A stretch of DNA of 64,000 bases from Podarcis pityusensis (taxonomy: Eukaryota). Under the pieces are notes generated by a model. It had not been told where the DNA came from. It did no database searches and was given only the letters and a program-made list of their open reading frames with translations. The DNA lies in NCBI GenBank assembly GCA_964106645.2, contig OZ067047.1. One strand, written 5' to 3'. Positions 16,768 through 57,939 of this stretch are shown here, in pieces (position 1 is the stretch's first letter; each line of letters starts with the position of its first letter). The position numbers and the translations under genes were made by a program.

Positions 16768-16855
16768 AGCAGTCTTATAGAAAAGGCCATTAGAGCTGTT
16801 GTCTTATGCAGAGGCATAAGACAACAGCACTAATGGTCTTTTCTATAAGACTGCT
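16768..16855. repeat. Near-perfect inverted repeat (42-bp arms, 4-nt loop)
   Basis: Arms 16768-16809 and 16814-16855 are complementary at 40/42 positions; loop AGAG. Confidence 0.95.
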
Positions 16856-32117: not shown

Positions 32118-32576
32118 TGTCAGGTCTGTAGGTGGTTGCTTGCCAGTAAACAGCCAGGACTCCAACCTGTCTTTTCCAGGTTTTATTTAGTGCAACTATT
32201 TACAGTTCAGAGATCCAAAGTTCATGTCTGTCTCAGTCACTTGCAGATTCCGGGAGTGGCTTCATCCTGTTCCCCACCCCACCCCCAGCATAAGAACTTA
32301 GACACCCCAAATCTCTGCCTCCTTTCCTTATGTTTAACCCCCTTGCGAAAACTGGGTGATGGAAGTGGCATGTTTATTTCCCGACCAGCCTGGCTGAGAG
32401 AGGTGCTAAGGCTCAAAGTAACGTCTGTGAGCCTTTGCCTCGCTTTGCCCCTCCTTTCCACCTCTGCTTCTTCGGAGGCTTCACTCTCTCCACTCCCGAC
32501 GAAGCGCTACTGCAGTGTTGGAGGCTCCCTGTACTCTTCTGCCCCCCTCCTCCCTTTCGATGGCAGTACCCTGACA
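32118..32576 (-). mobile_element. Solo LTR (459 bp, Gypsy-like) with an internal reading frame
   Basis: TGTCAGG...CCTGACA inverted termini; minus-strand AATAAA at 32182-32187; imperfect TSD TATA/GATA. Confidence 0.75.
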
Positions 32577-34160: not shown

Positions 34161-36065
34161 GGAGAGGGAAAGGTACCTGCACATGCTACAGCGGAGCTGA
34201 AAACGCCACCCTCCACTCTATTTGCAGGCAGAAAAGAGAGGATGCACTTCTGTCCTTATTTTCAGGGAGATACTTGTTACATTTGGGGAAAACCTAAAAA
34301 GCAAGGGCTCAGGCTTAGCTGTCATTGTCCCCAACTCTTTTGGCTTCTTTTTAAACTTAATTCTGACACTCCTCCTACTGCAAACCCCAGCAGCTATTTT
34401 GCGTCCCTCCAGGTGTCCTTTTTATTTGTGATGCTTTGTACTCATGATGGTATTGGGGCAGTTAGATGTAATCCCACTTTCTATATTGTTTGCACTTGCA
34501 GAAGTTTTAGTCTTGATGGGACAACCGCTCCACACTCTTATCTCCTCTCCCCCTGTTTTGCTTGACACTCTGTCTGGTGAAGAGTTCTGAGGAGCTCAAA
34601 ACCTTGCTTGTTTCCTTGCAACATTTTTAGTGGGTCCTAAAGGTATTGCCTAGCCGTGGATTTGAGATTAAAGCGAACATATATCTCAAAACAAACAGAG
34701 GGAAGTGATGTAGCTTTGCACTTCTTCTCCAAATTGAAACCGTTCCAGCTGAATCGAGAAAGCAGCATATTCTGTCTTGGGGCAACGCAGCTCACTAATC
34801 CTGGACGTCTTGCCAAATATGCGAGATATGAGAAAACAAAACAATTAAGAGCACAACAACAAGAAGAAAATAAGAAGAGACCAAAAAAAAAAAAGGAGGT
34901 GGGAGGAAGGCGGTGTGCAGCTCTCAGAGGATGGTGTGATTCTCTAAGTCTCCACAACACTAATCAAGCCCCGTAGATTCTAATCTTCGCTGTAATTAAC
35001 TTTATCCAAACGAGCAGCAGGCTGAGTGGCTTTGTCTGGGAGTTCTTCTGGCAATTTAATGTGTCTTGAAAATGACTTGGCACTTCCTGGATGGAGAAGG
35101 AGGAAGGAGAGGAAGATTAATGGGATGCCAAATGTTTATTCCTTCTAATGAAAAGGAACTGCAAAGGAAGTCTTATTGCACTCACACCTGGAATAAAGAG
35201 GCAAGAAGCACTTGCACTAGGGTAGATCAGGGCCACAGATTTATTTAAATGGGGAACCTGAAACTAGACTACTGTGCAAAGGTAAAATTAACATTTGTTG
35301 CTCCGCCCACTTTTCCTGCTGCACCCACCTCCCTGTCACTAGCATGTGGCCCCTGGAAGGTTGCCCAAGAAGGGAATATGGCCCTCAGACTGAAAAGTGA
35401 TCCCTACCACTGCTCTAACCATTTCCCCTCCCCAGATCCCACCCCTGAAAAATCAACCACCAAATATGCAGCAATTTATGGGGGTTTGATCACCACACTT
35501 TTTGCAGTTTCAAGCTCTAATCTATGACCAGCGTGCTAAAAATTTCATTTGCTGGAGTGGGAATCAAGAGAGAAAGAAGTTTAAGTTCCAGTGTTCCAGG
35601 GCCTGCCTGCAGAACTTTCCCTGCTAAAATGACATCTCCTTCCATTTTCTTCAGCTTATGGTTAACTGTGTCTATTATTTCATATCTTGCAGAACTATAA
35701 GTTGAAGGAAACGGAAGGAGCTGACATTTTGGCAGGGAATGTTCTGCAGGCTTTTTGTGTGAATGCGATGACATTCCTTTTTTATTATCTTGATTAATAA
35801 CACAAAGGTGTTGGGGATATTACCATAAACTCCTCCAACATTCTGCTGATCAAAATCAGGACACTGGTTTTTTAGTCCCGAGCTCTCATACGCGAGGCCA
35901 AAAAAAAAATGAGCATCTTTTTTAGTTTGGCACTCTGGCGCGAGCCAGCTGATTCACGCCAGAGCGCCAGACCAAAAATTGGACATTTCATGATCCAGTT
36001 GGAAGCTGAGATAGCTTCTGTAATTCTGGGTTGTCCCACTCAAATTGGGATGGTTTTAGGTTATG

Positions 36066-49046: not shown

Positions 49047-50237
49047 GCATTTGCCCCTTTTGGAGTGAGAAGGGATGATCTTCCACTTGCATGCCTCCTT
49101 TCATTCTTCACAGCCGTGGTGGCTTTGGTGTCCAATGCAAGAGAGAATTGAAGAAGCACAAGGTTGTCTCAAGTAGTCAAAGCTGAGTCCGTGCATCTCC
49201 TACCACCACCACCCTCACTAGGAATATGTGTGTGCTGTGCCATCCCTGCATCTATATAGAATAGGCTCATCATAGGGAGAGGCAGGGGCAGGAGGGGCAG
49301 GCCCACCTTCTAACCTTGGGAAGGGCCATGCACAAGGTCTCAGGTTCAACCTCCCTTAACTCCAGGTGGGACTGGGAGAGAACCCAGCCTGAAATCCTGG
49401 AGAGCTACTGCCAGCAATACTGAGCTAGATGGACCAATAGTCTGAGTGAGTATAAGGCAGGCATCCTATATTCCTAAACCAGGAATGGAAGAGGAAGCAG
49501 AACTCACACATCATCTTTGGCTAGGCTTATCTAGCTGATCAGCAAGGAGCCCTGGCCCAGTACTAAGAACATCAGAGCATAAGACCACTACTGATGTGGA
49601 TGCACCTCCTGGCTCCAGTCTGTCTACATAACCTGTAACCAACAAGTCTGCTGGATAGAGAGTGCATATATTTTGTACACAGATTGGGTCTACTGACATG
49701 ACATAGGGTTGCATCCAACTAAGTTCTGCTTAGAGTAAAAGGTAATCTCACCTACTCTAAGTATGACTATCATTGAATATAACCCACAATAAAAACATGG
49801 AAATTATAAGCATGGCCAGCAGAGGTGATTCTGCTCCATTCTCCATGAGTGTATTGCATTCCCATTTGTACACACCTTTCTAAGAATGGCATGAGCTCAT
49901 TCAGCAAATCTAGCCACAGGAGGTTGGTTCATTAGGACAAAGAAGGCACTGCCCCCACCAGCCTTAGCCTGCCTCTCAGCCTGCCTCTCAGCCAGCCCCC
50001 ACCTGCCCAACTTCCTGTCTTCCTACTTACAAACAATCCAAGGGATGGCACTTTGTCAGCTTCCCCCTTAGTTTCAGAGTTGCCCTTGTAGAACTCAACA
50101 AGGAGGAAGATGGGGACCAAAACCAGGAGAAGTTGGCTCTGCTTATCAGTTGCTTTGCCTGCTCTGTGCAATTGAGGTTCTACATCATCTGGGGAAATTC
50201 TTCCCTCTTCACTGCAGACCTTTGCCCTCCAACACAT

Positions 50238-50607
50238 TGAAATATACTCAGAGTCGCAAAGTGATTTCATGCTCTTTATTCAGCTCATAGTGGTGAGGAG
50301 GAATGAATAAATGTCCCCTCACAGTATCTGCTTTATATACATTATTTACACAATGGGCTGCACATGATTGGCTAATTCTGGAATTCTACTGTAAGCCAAT
50401 CAGGTTGTGGATTCACTTCTATCTGGAGCAGGATTGGGTGGTTCCTGCCAACCAATCATACTGCTGCATTGTTCTAGGACCAATCAGACTGCTGCATTCT
50501 GAATCCTATTGTTCTAGGACCAATCAGACTGCTGCCTTTTGGATCCTATTGTTCTAGGACCAATCAGACTGCTACAGTTTGGATCCTATTCAACTCAGTA
50601 CATAACA
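50238..50607 (-). repeat. 3' LTR of the Gypsy element
   Basis: Follows the PPT; minus-strand TATATAAAG (~50331-50339) and AATAAA (50275-50280). Confidence 0.95.
50468..50590. promoter_or_regulatory. Three 40-bp tandem repeats, each with a CCAAT box, in LTR U3 (also at 55050-55172)
   Basis: Unit ATTGTTCTAGGACCAATCAGACTGCTGCATTCTGAATCCT (with variants) starting at 50468, 50508 and 50548. Confidence 0.8.
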
Positions 50608-50620
50608 CCCCTCCCCTCTA
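50608..50620 (-). other. Polypurine tract
   Basis: TAGAGGGGAGGGG directly before the 3' LTR; overlaps the pol TAG stop. Confidence 0.9.
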
Positions 50621-53600
50621 AGTTCCAGTCCTGCCCGGGAGGTCGCATTCATAGTCCTCAAGGTATGCCGGCGGCCTACGTGTGCGTTGTGGCCTGGGGT
50701 GTTCCCTGGTCCGGGCTCCGGGTTCTGGCTCGTGTTCCAAGGATGCTGGCTGTGATGCGGCTGTTTGGTCTGGTGCAACCGGCTCGCTCAGTCGTGGTTC
50801 TGGTTCCGGTGTCCTTTCGGCCTCACGGGTCCTCTCTGTATTTACTGATTCTGCCTCTCCTGCTGGCCCCTCCTGCTCTATGGGCCTCACTGCCCCGCTG
50901 TTCCCTTGGGACTCCTCTGACCTGTCCTCCTCCTGGTTTTCTCCCGGGAATCGTCGCCGTATCTGGTCGCAGTGGCGGCGCCAGCATTGCCCCCCATCCG
51001 TTAGCACCTCGTACGACACGGGGCCAGTGACCCTGGTGATTGTGGCGGGTACCCATGCTGGGCCTGCCCCAAAATTCTTTGCGTACACTGGGTCCTGGGC
51101 CTCGAAGGTCCGGGGGTTCCTGCCTTCCCCCACCACTACCTCATCCTGAGCTCTATCGGGGTGAAGGCGGTCCAATCTGATTGCAAGGCGCCGACCCATT
51201 AGTAGTTCAGCGGGGCTCCGGCCAGTCGTTGAGCTGGGGGTGCTGTGCTGTGCTAGAAGGAATGTGGCAAGGCGGTACTCCCAGTCCCCTTGCGTCATGC
51301 GGCGAAGGGTGTCCTTGGTGGTCCGCACCATGCGTTCTGCTTGGCCATTGGTGGCAGGGTGGAACGGCGCCGAACGGATGTGGCGGATGGCGTTCTGCGC
51401 TGTGAAGGTTTGGAATTCTCCTGACGTAAATGCAGTCCCGTTGTCTGAGACGAGAGTGTCAGGGAGCCCGTGGGTTGCAAACAGCCTGCGTAGTACCCGG
51501 ATGGCTGCGGACGTGGAAGTGGACGGTACCAGTGCGACTTCCAGCCATTTGGTGTAGGAGTCCACCACTATGAAGAATGTTTTCCCCTGAAAGGGGCCAG
51601 CAAAATCCACATGCAGGCGTGACCATGGTGCTCGGGCGGACTCCCAGGACTGGACTGGGGCCCTTGGGGGGTCTGGGCGGGATTCTTGGCAGGCCTGGCA
51701 GTGTTTGACCCAGGCCTCTATCTCTCCATCGATCCCCGGCCACCACACATAACTCCTGGCAAGGGCCTTCATTCTTACTACCCCTGGATGTGTCTCGTGT
51801 AGGGCTGTGAGGACCCTTTTGCAGAGGGGCTGGGGAACAACGACTCTGCTTCCCCATAACAGGCACCCCTTGTGGGCCGACAGTTCATGTTTGCGGGTTG
51901 TGTAGCCGGCGAATTCTGGCCCGGGGCTGCTGCTGGGCCATCCCCTCCACACCCAGTCCAGGACCCGGGAGATGACCCTATCTTTCTTGGAATGGTGTGC
52001 AACTTCTTGTGCCTGAATGGGGCGGTCGGGAAGCAGCTCCAGGCTCATAACCTCTTGTGCAGGTGCTGGGTCAGGGCCTGTTTCCGGTAGTGGTAGCCTG
52101 CTGAGGGCGTCCGCATGGCCCATCGCCTTCCCAGGTCGGTGAATCAGTGCATACTGGTAGCTGGCAAGGAAAATTGACCACCTGAGGACGCGAGGAGACA
52201 GCACTTGGGGGGTCTGCTTTTCGGGGGCAAACAAGCCAAGCAACGGCTTGTGGTCAGTCACCACGGTGAAGGGCCGCCCGTACAAGAAATCATGGAATTT
52301 TTTTACTCCCTTTACGATTGCCAGACCCTCCTTGTCGATTTGCGAGTAGTTCCGCTCGGTTGTGTTGAGTGTCTGGGAAAAGTACGCCACCGGTACCTCT
52401 CTTCCATCCGGGAGTTGGTGCCCCAGGACAGCTCCAATGCCATAGGGTGAGGCGTCGCATGCTAGCACCACCGGCAGCCTCTCGTCGAAGTGTGCCAAGA
52501 CCGAGTTTGAGACAAGCAAGTCCTTGACTGCCTGGAATGCGGCCTCCTGGCGCTGGCCCCACACCCAAGGGGCCCGCTTGTCCAGGAGTCTATGTAGGGG
52601 CTCCGCTACCGCCGCCTTGTGGGGAAGGAAGGAATGGTAAAAGTTCAATAGTCCCAAGAAGGCCTGAAGTTCAGTCTTGCTCTTGGGCGCTGGGGCATCA
52701 CAAATGGCCCGTACCTTGTCCCCAGTCGGGTGGACCCCTTCTGCGTCCACCATAAATCCCAGAAAGTCCACCTGAGGCACTCCTAGTAGACATTTTTCCC
52801 GCTTCACCTTGAGACCCGCCGTCTGGAAACGGTGCAGAACGGTGCGGAGGCGGTCCTCAAACTCCTCTGGTGTGGGGCCGGCAATCAACACATCATCGAA
52901 GAAGGGGGTGACGCCAGGAATCCCTTTAAGGAGAGAGTCCATTATATTCTGGAATATGCCTGGTGCCACGCTGACACCGAATTGCAGCCGCTTTACCCTG
53001 AACGCTCCTCTGTGCGTCACAATCGTCTGTGCCTCTGCTGTGGCCTCATCTACTGGCAGCTGTTGATATGCTTGGGCCAAGTCCAGCTTGCCAAAAATTT
53101 TCGACCCAGCCAGGGTGGCAAGGACATGGCTGACCACTGGCACTGGGTATGCGTGGGCCGTGAGGGCCTTGTTTATGGTACATTTGTAGTCTGCGCAGAT
53201 GCGGACCGAACCATTAGGCTTGACGGGTGTGACGATTGGGGTTTCCCAGGGAGCATTAGGCACCGGCTCCAGCACTCCTTGCTCTACGAGTCGGTCCAAT
53301 TCCTCGTCTATACGGGGTTTCAAGGCGAACGGGACCCGGCGGGCCTTGAGCCTGACCGGTCGTACTGCGGGGTCAAGCTGTAGCGCAATGGGGGGGCCCG
53401 TATACTGTCCCAATTTCCCATCGAAAACCCCTGGAAATTCCTTGCATATGGCGTCCACGTCCACTTGTAAGCTAGTGTGGTTCACCCCGGTGACAGCTAG
53501 CCCCAGTGGTCCAAACCATGCCAATCCCAGTAAGCTAATGTAGGGGCCCTTGACCACAAGCAAGTCCAGTTGCCGCGTCCGCCCTCGGTATTGCACCCTG

Positions 53601-54694
53601 AAGGTCCCCACCCCCATTGTGGGGACCTTACGTTTCTGGAAGTCCCGGAGGGTGAATGGGGCCGGCCTGAGTTTGGGACCCCCAGTGGGACACAGTTTCC
53701 TTAAGGTCCTTGCCGAGATTATGGATAGAGTTGAACCCGTGTCAAGCTCCATGCGGCATGGGGCCCCCTCTATCTGTACCTCTACATAAATTTTCTCTAC
53801 GTTGGGGTGGGGCAACTGGTATACCTGGAAGTCCGTGAGCTCCGTCGAGTTGCCTTGGTGCGTTGGGCCCCGGGACCTGGGGCTCTTGGATTGGTCATCT
53901 GATGCCTGGTGTCGGGTGGGCCGAGCCCGACACACCCGGGCGATGTGTCCCGATTTTCTGCACTGCCTGCACTCTGCGTTGCGGAAACGGCAGGTCCTCC
54001 TCTCGTGACTCTCCCCGCAGCTTGCGCAGTTCCCTCCTTCTCGTCGAGGCAGCTGTGGTCTGTGCGCTGCTTGAGTGCGCTGCTGTACTCGGTGCACCTC
54101 CTCCCTGTCGGATCCTGAGTCGTCGGTGAGGTCTTCATGGTGGACCCTCGGTTGGGATGGCAGGCTCGGCCGTGCCTCTTGGGTCGACCTCTCGGCAGCT
54201 TCTGTTGCCAGGGCCTCCTCCAGAGCGACCTGGAACGTTAGGTCCTTCTTAGCGTAGAGGCGTCGTTGCAGCTTCTCATCCTTCAGGCCACCGACGAGGC
54301 GGTCACGAAGCATGTTCTCCAGCTCTGAGAAGTTGCAGAACCGGGCGGCTTGGCGGAGAGAGGTCACAAACCCAGTTATGGTTTCCCCAGGGGCTTGCCG
54401 CTTTGCGTAGAAGGCATTTCGACGAGCCACCACTGAGGGCTGCGGCGAAAAGTGCCCCTTCAGCTGTTCCATTATTGTTTTGTATGGAACAGTAGCGACG
54501 TCTTCAGGCGCAAGGAGAGCCCGGGCGATTTCAAACGTCTCCTCTCTGCAGACGCTGAAGAATATCGCCCTCTTCTTGGCGTCTTCTTCGTCGGTGACCC
54601 CTTTGGCTTCTAGGAGGAAGGTGAAACGGGAGGCGTACGCTTCCCAGTCTCCAGATGCTGGGTTGAATGGCGAGAAGCTGCTGTTGGCTGCCAT
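50618..54694 (-). CDS. Gag-Pol polyprotein, single ORF of 1358 aa (gag with two Zn knuckles, aspartic protease, RT, RNase H, integrase)
   Basis: Knuckles CASCGESHERRTC and CRQCRKSGHIARVC; protease LDTGS; RT RICADY, KLDLAQAYQQL, RLQFGV, FFDD; RNase H DASPYGIGA, TDHKPL; integrase HETH..CQAC, VDF, SDNG, GQAER; C-terminal RTRRPPAYLEDY. The PR-RT-RH-IN order is Gypsy-type. Confidence 0.97.
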   Translation of the reverse strand: MAANSSFSPFNPASGDWEAYASRFTFLLEAKGVTDEEDAKKRAIFFSVCREETFEIARALLAPEDVATVPYKTIMEQLKGHFSPQPSVVARRNAFYAKRQAPGETITGFVTSLRQAARFCNFSELENMLRDRLVGGLKDEKLQRRLYAKKDLTFQVALEEALATEAAERSTQEARPSLPSQPRVHHEDLTDDSGSDREEVHRVQQRTQAAHRPQLPRREGGNCASCGESHERRTCRFRNAECRQCRKSGHIARVCRARPTRHQASDDQSKSPRSRGPTHQGNSTELTDFQVYQLPHPNVEKIYVEVQIEGAPCRMELDTGSTLSIISARTLRKLCPTGGPKLRPAPFTLRDFQKRKVPTMGVGTFRVQYRGRTRQLDLLVVKGPYISLLGLAWFGPLGLAVTGVNHTSLQVDVDAICKEFPGVFDGKLGQYTGPPIALQLDPAVRPVRLKARRVPFALKPRIDEELDRLVEQGVLEPVPNAPWETPIVTPVKPNGSVRICADYKCTINKALTAHAYPVPVVSHVLATLAGSKIFGKLDLAQAYQQLPVDEATAEAQTIVTHRGAFRVKRLQFGVSVAPGIFQNIMDSLLKGIPGVTPFFDDVLIAGPTPEEFEDRLRTVLHRFQTAGLKVKREKCLLGVPQVDFLGFMVDAEGVHPTGDKVRAICDAPAPKSKTELQAFLGLLNFYHSFLPHKAAVAEPLHRLLDKRAPWVWGQRQEAAFQAVKDLLVSNSVLAHFDERLPVVLACDASPYGIGAVLGHQLPDGREVPVAYFSQTLNTTERNYSQIDKEGLAIVKGVKKFHDFLYGRPFTVVTDHKPLLGLFAPEKQTPQVLSPRVLRWSIFLASYQYALIHRPGKAMGHADALSRLPLPETGPDPAPAQEVMSLELLPDRPIQAQEVAHHSKKDRVISRVLDWVWRGWPSSSPGPEFAGYTTRKHELSAHKGCLLWGSRVVVPQPLCKRVLTALHETHPGVVRMKALARSYVWWPGIDGEIEAWVKHCQACQESRPDPPRAPVQSWESARAPWSRLHVDFAGPFQGKTFFIVVDSYTKWLEVALVPSTSTSAAIRVLRRLFATHGLPDTLVSDNGTAFTSGEFQTFTAQNAIRHIRSAPFHPATNGQAERMVRTTKDTLRRMTQGDWEYRLATFLLAQHSTPSSTTGRSPAELLMGRRLAIRLDRLHPDRAQDEVVVGEGRNPRTFEAQDPVYAKNFGAGPAWVPATITRVTGPVSYEVLTDGGQCWRRHCDQIRRRFPGENQEEDRSEESQGNSGAVRPIEQEGPAGEAESVNTERTREAERTPEPEPRLSEPVAPDQTAASQPASLEHEPEPGARTREHPRPQRTRRPPAYLEDYECDLPGRTGT

Positions 54695-54800
54695 TCTGAG
54701 TTCCTTGTGCCCCGGAGCTGAAGCCTGGATACACGGTGCGAGGCAGCGGTGCGGCAGTTGGCGGTGCTGCGGTGCTGTGTGTGGCAGTCAGCTCAGCGGG

Positions 54801-54818
54801 ATCCCACCTTCGTCGCCA
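54801..54818 (-). other. Primer binding site complementary to the 3' end of tRNA-Ser(GCT)
   Basis: Minus strand TGGCGACGAAGGTGGGAT, 1 nt after the LTR CA; the plus strand ATCCCACCTTCGTCGCCA matches my recollection of the vertebrate tRNA-Ser(GCT) 3' end plus CCA. Confidence 0.85.
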
Positions 54819-54819
54819 G

Positions 54820-55189
54820 TGAAATATACTCAGAGTCGCAAAGTGATTTCATGCTCTTTATTCAGCTCATAGTGGTGAGGAGGAATGAATAAATGTCCCC
54901 TCACAGTATCTGCTTTATATACATTATTTACACAATGGGCTGCACATGATTGGCTAATTCTGGAATTCTACTGTAAGCCAATCAGGTTGTGGATTCACTT
55001 CTATCTGGAGCAGGATTGGGTGGTTCCTGCCAACCAATCATACTGCTGCATTGTTCTAGGACCAATCAGACTGCTGCATTCTGAATCCTATTGTTCTAGG
55101 ACCAATCAGACTGCTGCCTTTTGGATCCTATTGTTCTAGGACCAATCAGACTGCTACAGTTTGGATCCTATTCAACTCAGTACATAACA
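54820..55189 (-). repeat. 5' LTR of the Gypsy element
   Basis: Reads TGTTATGTAC...ATATTTCA on minus; adjacent to the PBS; matches 50238-50607. Confidence 0.95.
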
Positions 55190-55561
55190 CACATAGAGGT
55201 CAGTGGGTGGCCGTGGAGAGTGGTCCTTTGCACTCACATTATTTTCCTTGTACAAGGGTTAGAAGGCCCAAACAGAGTTCAAGAGGTTCAGAACTGCAGG
55301 GGAGATGAGAGCATCTGACCAAAGGCATCTGTCTGAACATTTCTGATAGAGAAGTCTTCAGTTCCGGAAGTGAGCTGTCTCCACCTTTCTGCGGCACTGA
55401 ATTAAATCTGTCATTTGTTATTTTGCCTCACTGATGTGCATTAAAAAAAAAAAAAAACAGCTCTGGGCTGTAATCGTCACTCTTCTAAGGCTGCAGAGTA
55501 ATTGCTGGCAGCCATGGAAACCAACTTTCCATAGTCATTTATAAACTTGACCCTCTATAAT

Positions 55562-55987
55562 GGTATGGGGTTGCTCATGCGTAAGTTGCCGCCTCTCCTG
55601 GCTATGTTGCCTTGTTAAACCTTTCTGTCTAGACAGCCCTTCAATTCGTGGCTGCCTCAGTCGCTAGCAGAATCCGTCAGTGGGCGTTTCTTAAACCTTT
55701 TCCAACATAAAAGTTGTTTGACACCCAGTCTCCTCCTACTTTCTCTGCGCGGAAGTCTTCTGCGCAGGGAGGGCGTGGGTAGCGGAGGACCAGTGCTCTC
55801 CCCGCTGGTGTCCGGTGAAGAGTCTGGGAGCCCTCTCGCCGATTCCCCCATCTGCCCCTCCTTATTCCTGGTGTTGCACTGAATTGCTTCCCCATCTGCT
55901 GAGCTGCGTCTCTCCCTGCTGGGCCCTTCTCCAGCATCATTAGAGAGCCTTCCCTCCACCTCTAGCTCCGATGTCAGTTCCCTGACA
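55562..55987 (-). mobile_element. LTR related to 32118-32576, apparently truncated at its 3' end
   Basis: Begins TGTCAGGGAACTGACATCG (compare TGTCAGGGTACTGCCATCG); shares the translated motif; left boundary uncertain. Confidence 0.65.
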
Positions 55988-57939
55988 CCCTCCTTGCCGC
56001 TTTACTACTGCGTTAAGGTCAGCTGCGGTAGGGGTGGGGGAGAGAGAGAAAGAGAGAGAGAGAGATAAATCTGGAACTGTGTTTGCAAACTGGTGGTAGG
56101 CTTGTCAGCCTAAGTAACAAAAGGCATGACCCTTCCTATCAGCCATATGGGAGACAGACAGCACAGCTATTTACATGAGTGATACAGCAGTTTTACGGCA
56201 GGAACCTTACAATGATGAGTTATCCAAAGAGTCTGATTTCTCTTCTCTCCCTGTCAGCCTGTCAATCTCCTGTAGATGTGCGGAGGGTGGCCCTTGATGA
56301 GACAGGGCCTTTACACCAGTGGTCCTTCTCAGCCTGTGGAAACTCTCCCTAAAGAGGTTTACCTGGTGTTGACATCCTCCTTTTAGCCCCAGGCCAATAC
56401 TTCTCCCAGTCATTTGACTGCCATTCTGTTTTCCTGCTGCTTGGTAGTTTGTTGTGATTGTGCTGGTGTCATGGGGAGGTTGGGGTTTTATTGTACCATC
56501 ACTTTTAATTTCTTTTTAAGATGTTTAATTTGTGTGTGATTTTATATTTGGATTGTATTTCTTGATGCAAGTCACATGAGAATATGGAATGTGTGCTGTC
56601 ATTTTTGAGGTACATGCTTCTAGGGAGAGACAAATCTGTCCCATTCAGTTTCTCTTGCTTTCTCATTTTCCCAATCTTAAATTCAGTTTACCACATTCCT
56701 GCTTCAGAGTCTGATTTAAAACAAAAAAGCAAAGCCCTCATGAAAATTTTTCAGCATTTAAGGTTGGTTCAGAAAAGGGCTTAAGGGAGCAAGGTATAGA
56801 TGGAATACACTGTAGAGCAATGAGCCCCATCTGTCTATTTTATGGCTGGGGCTTCACTTAGTAGAACAATACACAGAAGTGTGAGACCATGTCGTGCATT
56901 CTTGTCATAACTGCAGGCCCGATTGTGGAATTGACTCCATAAGAGGCCAACCAGACAATCTGCAGTGCTGATGCCATCTCCTGGGAGTGACAATCCGACT
57001 TGTGAACCTTGTCACCTAGTTTAGTTGGTCAAAAGAAGCTTCTGGGAACCCGAGGAGAGCCCTTGACTGAATAGCAGGAAGTGTCAGTGACAAGAGACTG
57101 ACAGAAGCAATTCAGTTTAATTTAATTCAATCATCCTTCTGTTGCCCTGACAAAAAAAGTCTCGGAAAAGGACATCCCCTTAGGTCTCTGTCAAGGGTGT
57201 GCAAAGCCTATCCAGGATGTGGGGGGGTCACATGCACTCATTTTGGGGTTTGATCTCCCGAGCCCATTTGTCATCCATTTCAATTCTGGGTCCGATGGCA
57301 GGTTGTTACATAGCCCGGTGGCCTCTCTGCCGTCTCGCTCCACAAAGGCCAAATGCAATTTTCTCCATTTCCTTTTGACATGACGTCTTATTAGGGTGCT
57401 TGATAAATTGAGGATGCCATCTTCCTTGCCGTTGCTCATACTCAGGGCAGCGGCAGAGAAGCCCTTCCACACAGGCAGTAGTAGCTCCCTGTTGCCGATC
57501 TGGGCACTTGCTTAGTACATAGTGGCGATAACACCCCTTGGGGTTTTTTTTGTAAATAATTACAAGCATGGGGAACCCAACTCTTACTGTGAAGGCAGCA
57601 CATGGGAGGTATATCTCTTCAGTTCCCCATCATGATTAGCACCAAGATCCTGCTCCCTGGCATAGCTAGCTGTCTGAGAGGTGGTATCTCTATTGGTGCC
57701 AGGGCAGACATTTTTTTGTAGTCGCAAACTCTCCATTCTGATCATGAGTTGGGAAAGGGTGTGTGTGAAGAGATAAGCCTCCTCTCCCCATGCACTGACT
57801 TCACAGTAGGAATCAGGCTCCCCTGCACACTTCTCGCTTGGTGCTATTGGGTGTTTAAAGTGCAGCTATATTGGGGAAAGTTCATTCTGCCCATTTGATC
57901 CCTAAATGATTTTTTCCTTCAATTATTATTATATTTTTA

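Follow-up and report, generated by a model that had tools for sequence, protein, structure and literature searches.

Solo LTR and open reading frame in the window

The DNA analyzed here, in the following called the window, is a stretch of 64,000 nucleotides from contig OZ067047.1 of the lizard Podarcis pityusensis. On its minus strand, positions 55556 to 55987 are occupied by a 432-bp LTR of a chromoviral Gypsy family, which was designated family A. It is a solo LTR, because it has TG...TA ends and is flanked by a 5-bp target-site duplication (upstream copy at 55988-55992, downstream copy at 55551-55555, both minus strand). There is no pol gene upstream, and the window copy is a leftover of recombination that is probably never translated itself. 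The TG...TA configuration, with its non-canonical end at 55556-55557, is typical for the subfamily of the window copy; other subfamilies of family A have a CA end (loci L122, L131, and L135).

From base 2 of the LTR onwards, 109 codons without interruption cover positions 55986 to 55657 on the minus strand as one frame; in full-length elements it encodes the C-terminal tail of Pol and its integrase. Translation yielded exactly the 109 amino acids given in a preliminary description of this DNA, followed by a stop codon, and from stop to stop the frame extends to position 56001. The composition described there was also recovered, with a net charge of -6 over the first 65 amino acids and of +11 over the last 44. 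As had been stated, there is no ATG at the start of the frame; an internal methionine, Met46, is encoded at 55851-55849 and is missing in the tail of the related family C. Alignment and pN/pS values define a conserved terminal motif at residues P67 to D109 (55660-55788, minus strand), which is proline-rich and contains an arginine run with R86 and the sequence LLCW with W95. Two further reading frames of the LTR, i.e., the base-3 frame with two ATGs and an antisense shadow frame, were both rejected as coding.

The length of the frame alone is not beyond chance. Frames of at least 109 codons occurred somewhere in the LTR in 18% of 2000 dinucleotide shuffles (1% in the exact frame), and the window contains 52 stop-to-stop frames as long as this one. 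Two other features do exceed chance expectation, namely that the frame is joined in register to pol and that selection is seen when families are compared; both are described below.

A DNA search of the species' own genome resulted in 2362 candidate matches, the best 40 of which were scored. Thirty loci, including that of the window, align across the same 432 bp. Among the 29 best-matching copies outside the window, which are about 99% identical, 28 have an open frame, and the same is true for 80 of the 90 distinct LTRs of family A. Therefore, the window copy is typical for the family and not its best-preserved copy, as had been proposed. The window contains also an older related solo LTR of a second family, family B (32118-32576, minus strand), which shares the base-2 frame and the terminal motif but whose frame is now interrupted by a stop codon. 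A Pfam search with 11 other open reading frames of the window gave no match, and a self-comparison of the window revealed palindromic stretches at 16768-16855 (88 bp, 91%) and 35605-35751 (147 bp, 77%).

An unrelated single-ORF Gypsy element with 374-bp LTRs is located 365 bp from the solo LTR (50235-55190, minus strand). It has one frame of 1389 codons, and its LTRs are 99.7% identical and contain 40-bp tandem repeats in each. It was rejected as the source of the LTR with the 109-codon frame, because it has its own LTRs and no similarity to the frame. No chromodomain was found in this neighbor, and the identity in the integrase region is 31% over 125 amino acids. The suggested parallel between its C-terminal end and the LTR-encoded peptide is thus no more than an analogy (best BLASTP E value 0.35).

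In full-length elements the frame is the C-terminal end of Pol

Five full-length copies of family A were retrieved, which have sizes of about 5.6-6.2 kb and LTR pairs that are 95-99% identical. They carry gag (Retrotrans_gag and a zinc knuckle), followed by pol with reverse transcriptase, RNaseH, integrase, a Tf2-type SH3 domain, and a chromodomain. The domain order RT-RNaseH-integrase, the upstream gag gene, the paired LTRs, the target-site duplication, and the polypurine tract are those of Ty3/Gypsy elements. The chromodomain match (PF00385, E value 1.6e-10) is above the curated cut-off and is accompanied by SH3_Tf2-1, as in chromoviruses; in one copy (L145) it is below the cut-off. Type I chromodomains are characterized by three aromatic cage residues (in the excerpt available from PMC3059260), the first and third of which are missing in families A and C, as judged by eye. 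The same two residues are missing in family E and retained in family F and Anolis, also as judged by eye. In the chromodomain of family E (e.g., L286, L278:1836-3204, and L283) not even the central tryptophan is present. Family A is a young, high-copy chromoviral Gypsy family of the Tf1/sushi type.

Behind the chromodomain of family A an acidic linker crosses the polypurine tract and enters the LTR at base 2. The junction is in register in 27 of the 30 best family-A loci, i.e., in 23 of the 26 loci with all anchors and in four with truncated LTRs, and the distance of 408 nt is the same (p = 2e-10 against an expectation of one third, for copies that are related to each other). The region from the chromodomain to the stop codon in the LTR is free of stops in 18 of 26 loci. 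A natural ORF of 1011 amino acids matches RT, RNaseH, integrase, SH3, and chromodomain, and its C-terminal end is the peptide of the 109-codon frame. The preliminary description had postulated a protein segment encoded by the LTR and entered from upstream or by splicing, and had proposed translation across the integrase-PPT-LTR junction as a check. This translation runs from pol into the LTR frame, so that entry from upstream was verified. Entry via splicing is unnecessary, and no joint into the LTR frame was detected in four RNA runs of a related species at low depth.

The contig with the handle C19 (38 Mb) contains 19 of 40 matches to the internal junction of family A and 26 of 34 of the B type, but only one of 40 LTR-only matches. 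It looks like a non-recombining (W-like) chromosome that preserves full-length elements.

The tail overlaps a putative promoter site and the predicted self-primer

No tRNA-type primer binding site follows the 5' LTR. Instead, 14 loci of family A, some of them representing one and the same element, have a perfect 11-nt complement of LTR positions 307-317 right behind their 5' LTR. This corresponds to the self-priming of Tf1/sushi elements with an R/PBS duplex, as outlined in the available parts of two reports (10.1101/2022.12.06.519325, PMC2774666), with a predicted transcript start. A scan of 210 LTR sites uncovered 18 perfect primer complements and 4 with one mismatch, all of them at a 5' LTR junction. 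Family C has 11 of 11 self-primer pairs with a different sequence in 4 loci, a family-B element has compensatory changes in the pairing with one mismatch, and 10-nt primer matches are present in families E and F. A pattern search for 5' junctions of family B gave five matches, none of which was linked to an LTR. The pairing probability of the primer duplex was mostly higher than 0.9 in folds; in a single fold that started 4 nt before the primer (z = -1.07), the duplex was present in the centroid only.

In the window copy the predicted self-primer, which marks the start of R, is located at 55671-55681 (minus strand) and overlaps codons P102 to S106. A T/A-rich TATA-like site at 55706-55712 (minus strand), which precedes the predicted start of the transcript by about 31 nt, overlaps the LLCW codons and is a putative promoter element; it is found at the same spacing in families E and F. 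In family F the LTR-coded tail stops just before this site. Because of these two overlaps, pol is predicted to cover all of U3 and to end about 20 nt into R. For the same reason, the conservation of LLCW and of PLTDS is partly at the DNA level. An AATAAA signal is absent from the LTRs of families A and C.

The tail is under selection at the protein level

Family C is very young and has identical LTRs. In two of four fetched elements a pol of 1374 amino acids ends inside the 3' LTR; the other two have internal deletions, and their last ORF ends in the 3' LTR as well. All 30 of 30 near-identical junctions of this family are open. One young family-C element (L149, C5:6090700-6100699) adjoins an old family-B element.

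Families A and C were compared over the last 56 codons. They differ at 18, 11, and 33 first, second, and third codon positions, respectively, resulting in a pS of 0.78 and a pN of 0.23. These values resemble those of the chromodomain, which served as a control (pS 0.87, pN 0.19), and the tail is therefore under selection at the protein level. The other two sense frames have pN/pS ratios of 1.9 and 2.7. The 35 codons upstream of the promoter/primer region alone gave a pS of 0.77 and a pN of 0.30, and thus constraint at the DNA level fails to explain the selection signal. For 12 clusters, in an analysis that included 25 of the 90 family-A copies, the last 45 codons had pN/pS ratios of 0.25-0.69 between clusters and of 0.43-1.12 within clusters, with 0.16 for one cluster of two copies. 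The distance from base 2 to the stop codon in the commonest copies of several lineages is 303, 330, 342, and 378 nt, all of which are multiples of three.

In old B-type copies, read by eye at 30 loci with some duplicates, the register is kept in 9 of 26 junctions, and 12 and 5 are in the two other registers. The LTR frame of the B type nevertheless shows selection between subfamilies. The length of a G-run at the junction differs among near-identical copies, and in family E, which is related and live, a similar junction keeps the register; therefore, slippage after insertion is plausible for family B, but unproven. B-type elements with internal deletions were also observed (L147 and L166-L172).

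Taken together, the in-frame junction, the continuous natural ORFs, the selection, and the R/PBS complementarity were all directly observed, and the architecture and the selection can jointly be regarded as very well established.

Related families and terminal motifs

The continuous pol-into-LTR layout is also present in a fourth family, family D. Families E and F likewise enter the LTR at base 2, and the coding part comprises 634 nt of about 756 in family E and 355 nt of about 680 or 620 in family F. In a tree of 26 integrase sequences, families A, C, D, and E group together in a single clade (support 1.0), which is placed beside family F, Anolis, and Rhineura (0.87); the surrounding sequences were chromodomain-bearing proteins of amphibians and fungi, and the tree contained no named Sushi/Amn reference element. 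The extension behind the chromodomain has a median length of 25 amino acids in 111 relatives with a locatable chromodomain, and of about 190-370 amino acids in the A/C/E clade.

The tails of families A, B, C, and E share an arginine run and, after it, the sequence (L/I)L(C/S)W; nine residues before the tryptophan there is an arginine. Among 18 A-type tails R86 was found in 17 and W95 in all 18, nine residues apart. When the last 44 residues were shuffled, the spacing R-x8-W arose in 18% of cases, which is its chance rate. The NLS-like stretch KRFKKRP, which had been highlighted in the preliminary description, turned out not to be the conserved core: B-type families have replaced it and retained the arginine run and LCW, and L, C, W, and a proline are invariant. 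A resemblance to the LDSSPP motif of Ty5 was considered and discarded, since it is not conserved.

RRSARLKA and RRSARIAA are the terminal sequences of the family-F tail and of two proteins from Anolis; the Anolis tail would lie in an LTR as well, judged from the protein alone. A core of the RRSARL type is present in family F and Anolis and absent from family A. Tail ends of this HMGN-like kind (RRSARL, RRSARI, or RRSPRL) were observed at L285:5523-5877 and in the proteins P0046, P0047, P0049, and P0150. The core of HMGN proteins, RRSARLSA, and the Dot5 sequence RRSARIAT bind the acidic patch (available parts of PMC12871379 and PMC12480509), and the family F and Anolis tails match them nearly exactly. 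In CENP-C and KNL2 an arginine anchor and a tryptophan are spaced nine residues apart (available parts of PMC10015371 and PMC6776904), which is the spacing found in families A, B, C, and E. For family A the match is in spacing only, and the residue before the tryptophan is a cysteine, in contrast to the aromatic residue in CENP-C motifs. According to the same excerpts, all four host proteins use short nucleosome-binding motifs with an arginine anchor in disordered regions, as the lizard tails may do, but binding has been demonstrated for the host proteins, while that of the lizard tails is deduced from their sequences.

Insertion pattern

Family A is dispersed. None of 40 insertions is within 0.5 Mb of a contig end, and none of 90 loci is in satellite DNA. 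For family E, 31 of 102 placed elements are within 0.5 Mb of contig ends, compared to an expectation of 1.3% (137 rows on contigs 1-20 were merged into elements, and 13 rows on unplaced contigs were left out), and it occurs at both ends of several contigs. Two of 20 family-E loci are in a 176/186-bp satellite, versus none of 170 loci of the other sets. The respective number for family F is 2 of 113 near contig ends (114 of 150 rows, after exclusion of two unplaced rows and a subfamily of 34 rows). Family E is thus a candidate for a centromeric or subtelomeric retrotransposon, and its insertion counts are equally compatible with targeting and with retention.

Structure, database searches, and transcripts

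An AlphaFold model based on an alignment of six sequences contains a folded chromodomain and a tail that is coil (pLDDT below 50, mean 43.7). The Pfam search with the 109-codon ORF, the PDB profile search with the tail (up to an E value of 10), and the ESM Atlas gave no usable match. A profile search against 1.84 billion proteins resulted in nine matches, four of which represent the motif of the tail and five of which resemble repeat noise; no match outside retroelements pointed to a function of the tail. A search of sequencing runs for RNA carrying the sequence listed none. In RNA reads of a related species, the family-C element was covered in four of four runs at modest depth, while coverage of the A junction was thin and in both directions, and no transcript start or end was defined by these reads.

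A tail of the integrase that may tether it to nucleosomes

The best explanation for these results, to which we assign a probability of roughly 55%, is that the frame encodes a selected, U3-coded Pol tail of a self-priming chromovirus, which is likely to act as a nucleosome tether and probably also aids import. The genomic RNA would start at the 11-nt self-primer and end downstream of the stop codon, and therefore only the U3 copy in the 3' LTR would be translated. Translation through the polypurine tract and this U3 would yield an integrase in which the chromodomain is followed by a long acidic spacer, probably disordered, and by a terminal motif of basic and hydrophobic character. The tail, which is presumably expressed as protein, would not be removed from the mature integrase by the protease, and it could complement a chromodomain that has lost aromatic cage residues. 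The terminal motif is likely to tether the integration complex to nucleosomes via its arginines and probably supports nuclear import. Given the architecture and the selection, a function in nucleosome tethering appears somewhat more likely than not.

A more far-reaching version is tentative and rather doubtful at present. The squamate U3 could double as an exchangeable chromatin-targeting gene, i.e., with the decay of the chromodomain a tail with an arginine anchor, which is encoded by the LTR and resembles HMGN in one lineage and CENP-C in another, might pick the chromatin for insertion, and family E might be steered to centromeric or subtelomeric nucleosomes. If this were true, animals would have acquired a counterpart of the plant CR motif independently.

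Several other explanations have to be weighed. The C-terminus of the Ty1 integrase carries an NLS, and the lizard tail might, with the same architecture, be only such a signal on an acidic spacer without chromatin binding. This is unlikely, but it is the alternative to be taken most seriously, as the terminal segment has a net charge of +11 and KR-x-K/R is present in the tails of families A and C. However, a classical NLS does not need an invariant hydrophobic core, and thus the core of the tail, which outlasted the loss of KRFKKRP in the B lineages, would be unexpected, as would be the HMGN-like motif at the same place in the sister families.

It is improbable that the tail serves to target centromeres, with a CENP-C-like motif for the recognition of CENP-A nucleosomes, as an animal counterpart of the plant CR motif. 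The R-x8-W spacing in four families, the accumulation of family E near contig ends and in satellite, and the layout shared with the plant elements of CRM group A are in line with such a role. In contrast, family A is dispersed, family E occurs at both ends of several contigs, the spacing has a chance rate of 18%, and a cysteine replaces the aromatic residue.

Even less probable is a mere run-on of pol into the LTR, with a functionless extension and a motif that results from DNA constraints of promoter, self-primer, or LTR. The overlap of the motif codons with the TATA-like site and the self-primer fits to this idea, as do some frog relatives that appear to continue past the chromodomain without a shared motif, and the B-type junctions that are often out of register. 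It is already largely refuted by the comparison of families A and C, in which the amino acids are preserved although synonymous sites are near saturation, in the promoter region as well as upstream of it, and also by the multiples of three between base 2 and the stop codon.

It is very unlikely that U3 harbors an accessory gene of its own, comparable to MMTV sag or nef, which is reached by splicing or via Met46 and is possibly expressed from solo LTRs. Met46 is missing in family C, the frame is continuous with pol, and no splice joints were found in the related-species RNA at low depth, which outweighs the mere presence of this methionine in family A and a Podarcis muralis gene model that is discussed below. 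A frame that is open by chance in a young repeat rich in purines, suggested by the shuffles, by the 52 such frames in the window, and by copies too young for decay, is refuted by the junction register, the 1011-aa ORF, the selection between A and C and among clusters, and the LTR entry of families E and F.

Comparison with known chromoviruses

Plant chromoviruses are known to have a pol that reaches into the 3' LTR, and the lizard families represent a vertebrate case, for which no report was found. [quoted passage not shown] According to the same parts, the CR motif replaces the chromodomain, priming is by tRNA-Met, and the elements are centromeric, whereas family A retains a degenerate chromodomain upstream, the lizard elements use a self-primer, and family A is dispersed and family E enriched at contig ends. 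In Bingo1-4 and Bingo7 of Beta vulgaris the chromodomain lies upstream of the polypurine tract and the ORF extends into the flanking LTR; they belong to a plant clade, and a conserved, selected LTR-coded motif is not described for them in the accessible parts of PMC3605345. The vertebrate chromoviruses of the Tf1/sushi V-clade (Amn/Sushi), which are present in reptiles, likewise have a chromodomain at the integrase's C-terminal end and a self-priming R/PBS duplex. However, the excerpts of the respective papers (10.1101/2022.12.06.519325, PMC6317226, PMC2774666, PMC4131045) do not describe an extension that covers U3, in contrast to the about 190-370 amino acids behind the chromodomain in the lizard A/C/E clade. 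Literature searches did not reveal any description of an integrase tail that is encoded by U3 and under selection for the self-priming chromoviruses of vertebrates; an earlier mention in older papers or in repeat databases is possible.

With these results, thousands of "non-coding" solo LTRs in this genome become copies of a selected integrase domain, and one stretch of DNA is used three times, as putative promoter, as predicted self-primer, and as coding sequence. The tail also offers a short, testable peptide for the access of vertebrate Tf1/sushi elements to nucleus and chromatin, a step that is undescribed in the available parts of the papers cited above. The sister families with HMGN-like motifs, together with family E at chromosome ends, make integration targeting amenable to comparison.

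The LTR-coded tail also explains gene models that end in the tail peptide. Three UniRef entries of Podarcis muralis with the name "Gypsy retrotransposon integrase-like protein 1" (A0A670HKZ8, A0A670K6E2, and A0A670IL45) are automatic predictions of C-type Pol proteins that already include the LTR-coded tail; their name is silent on the tail and on its location in an LTR. A P4-ATPase model of the same species (A0A670JKR6, phospholipid-transporting ATPase, P0004) ends in the last 44 residues of the peptide, which is either an annotation artefact or an exonisation, and because of this model individual loci may undergo splicing into the frame.
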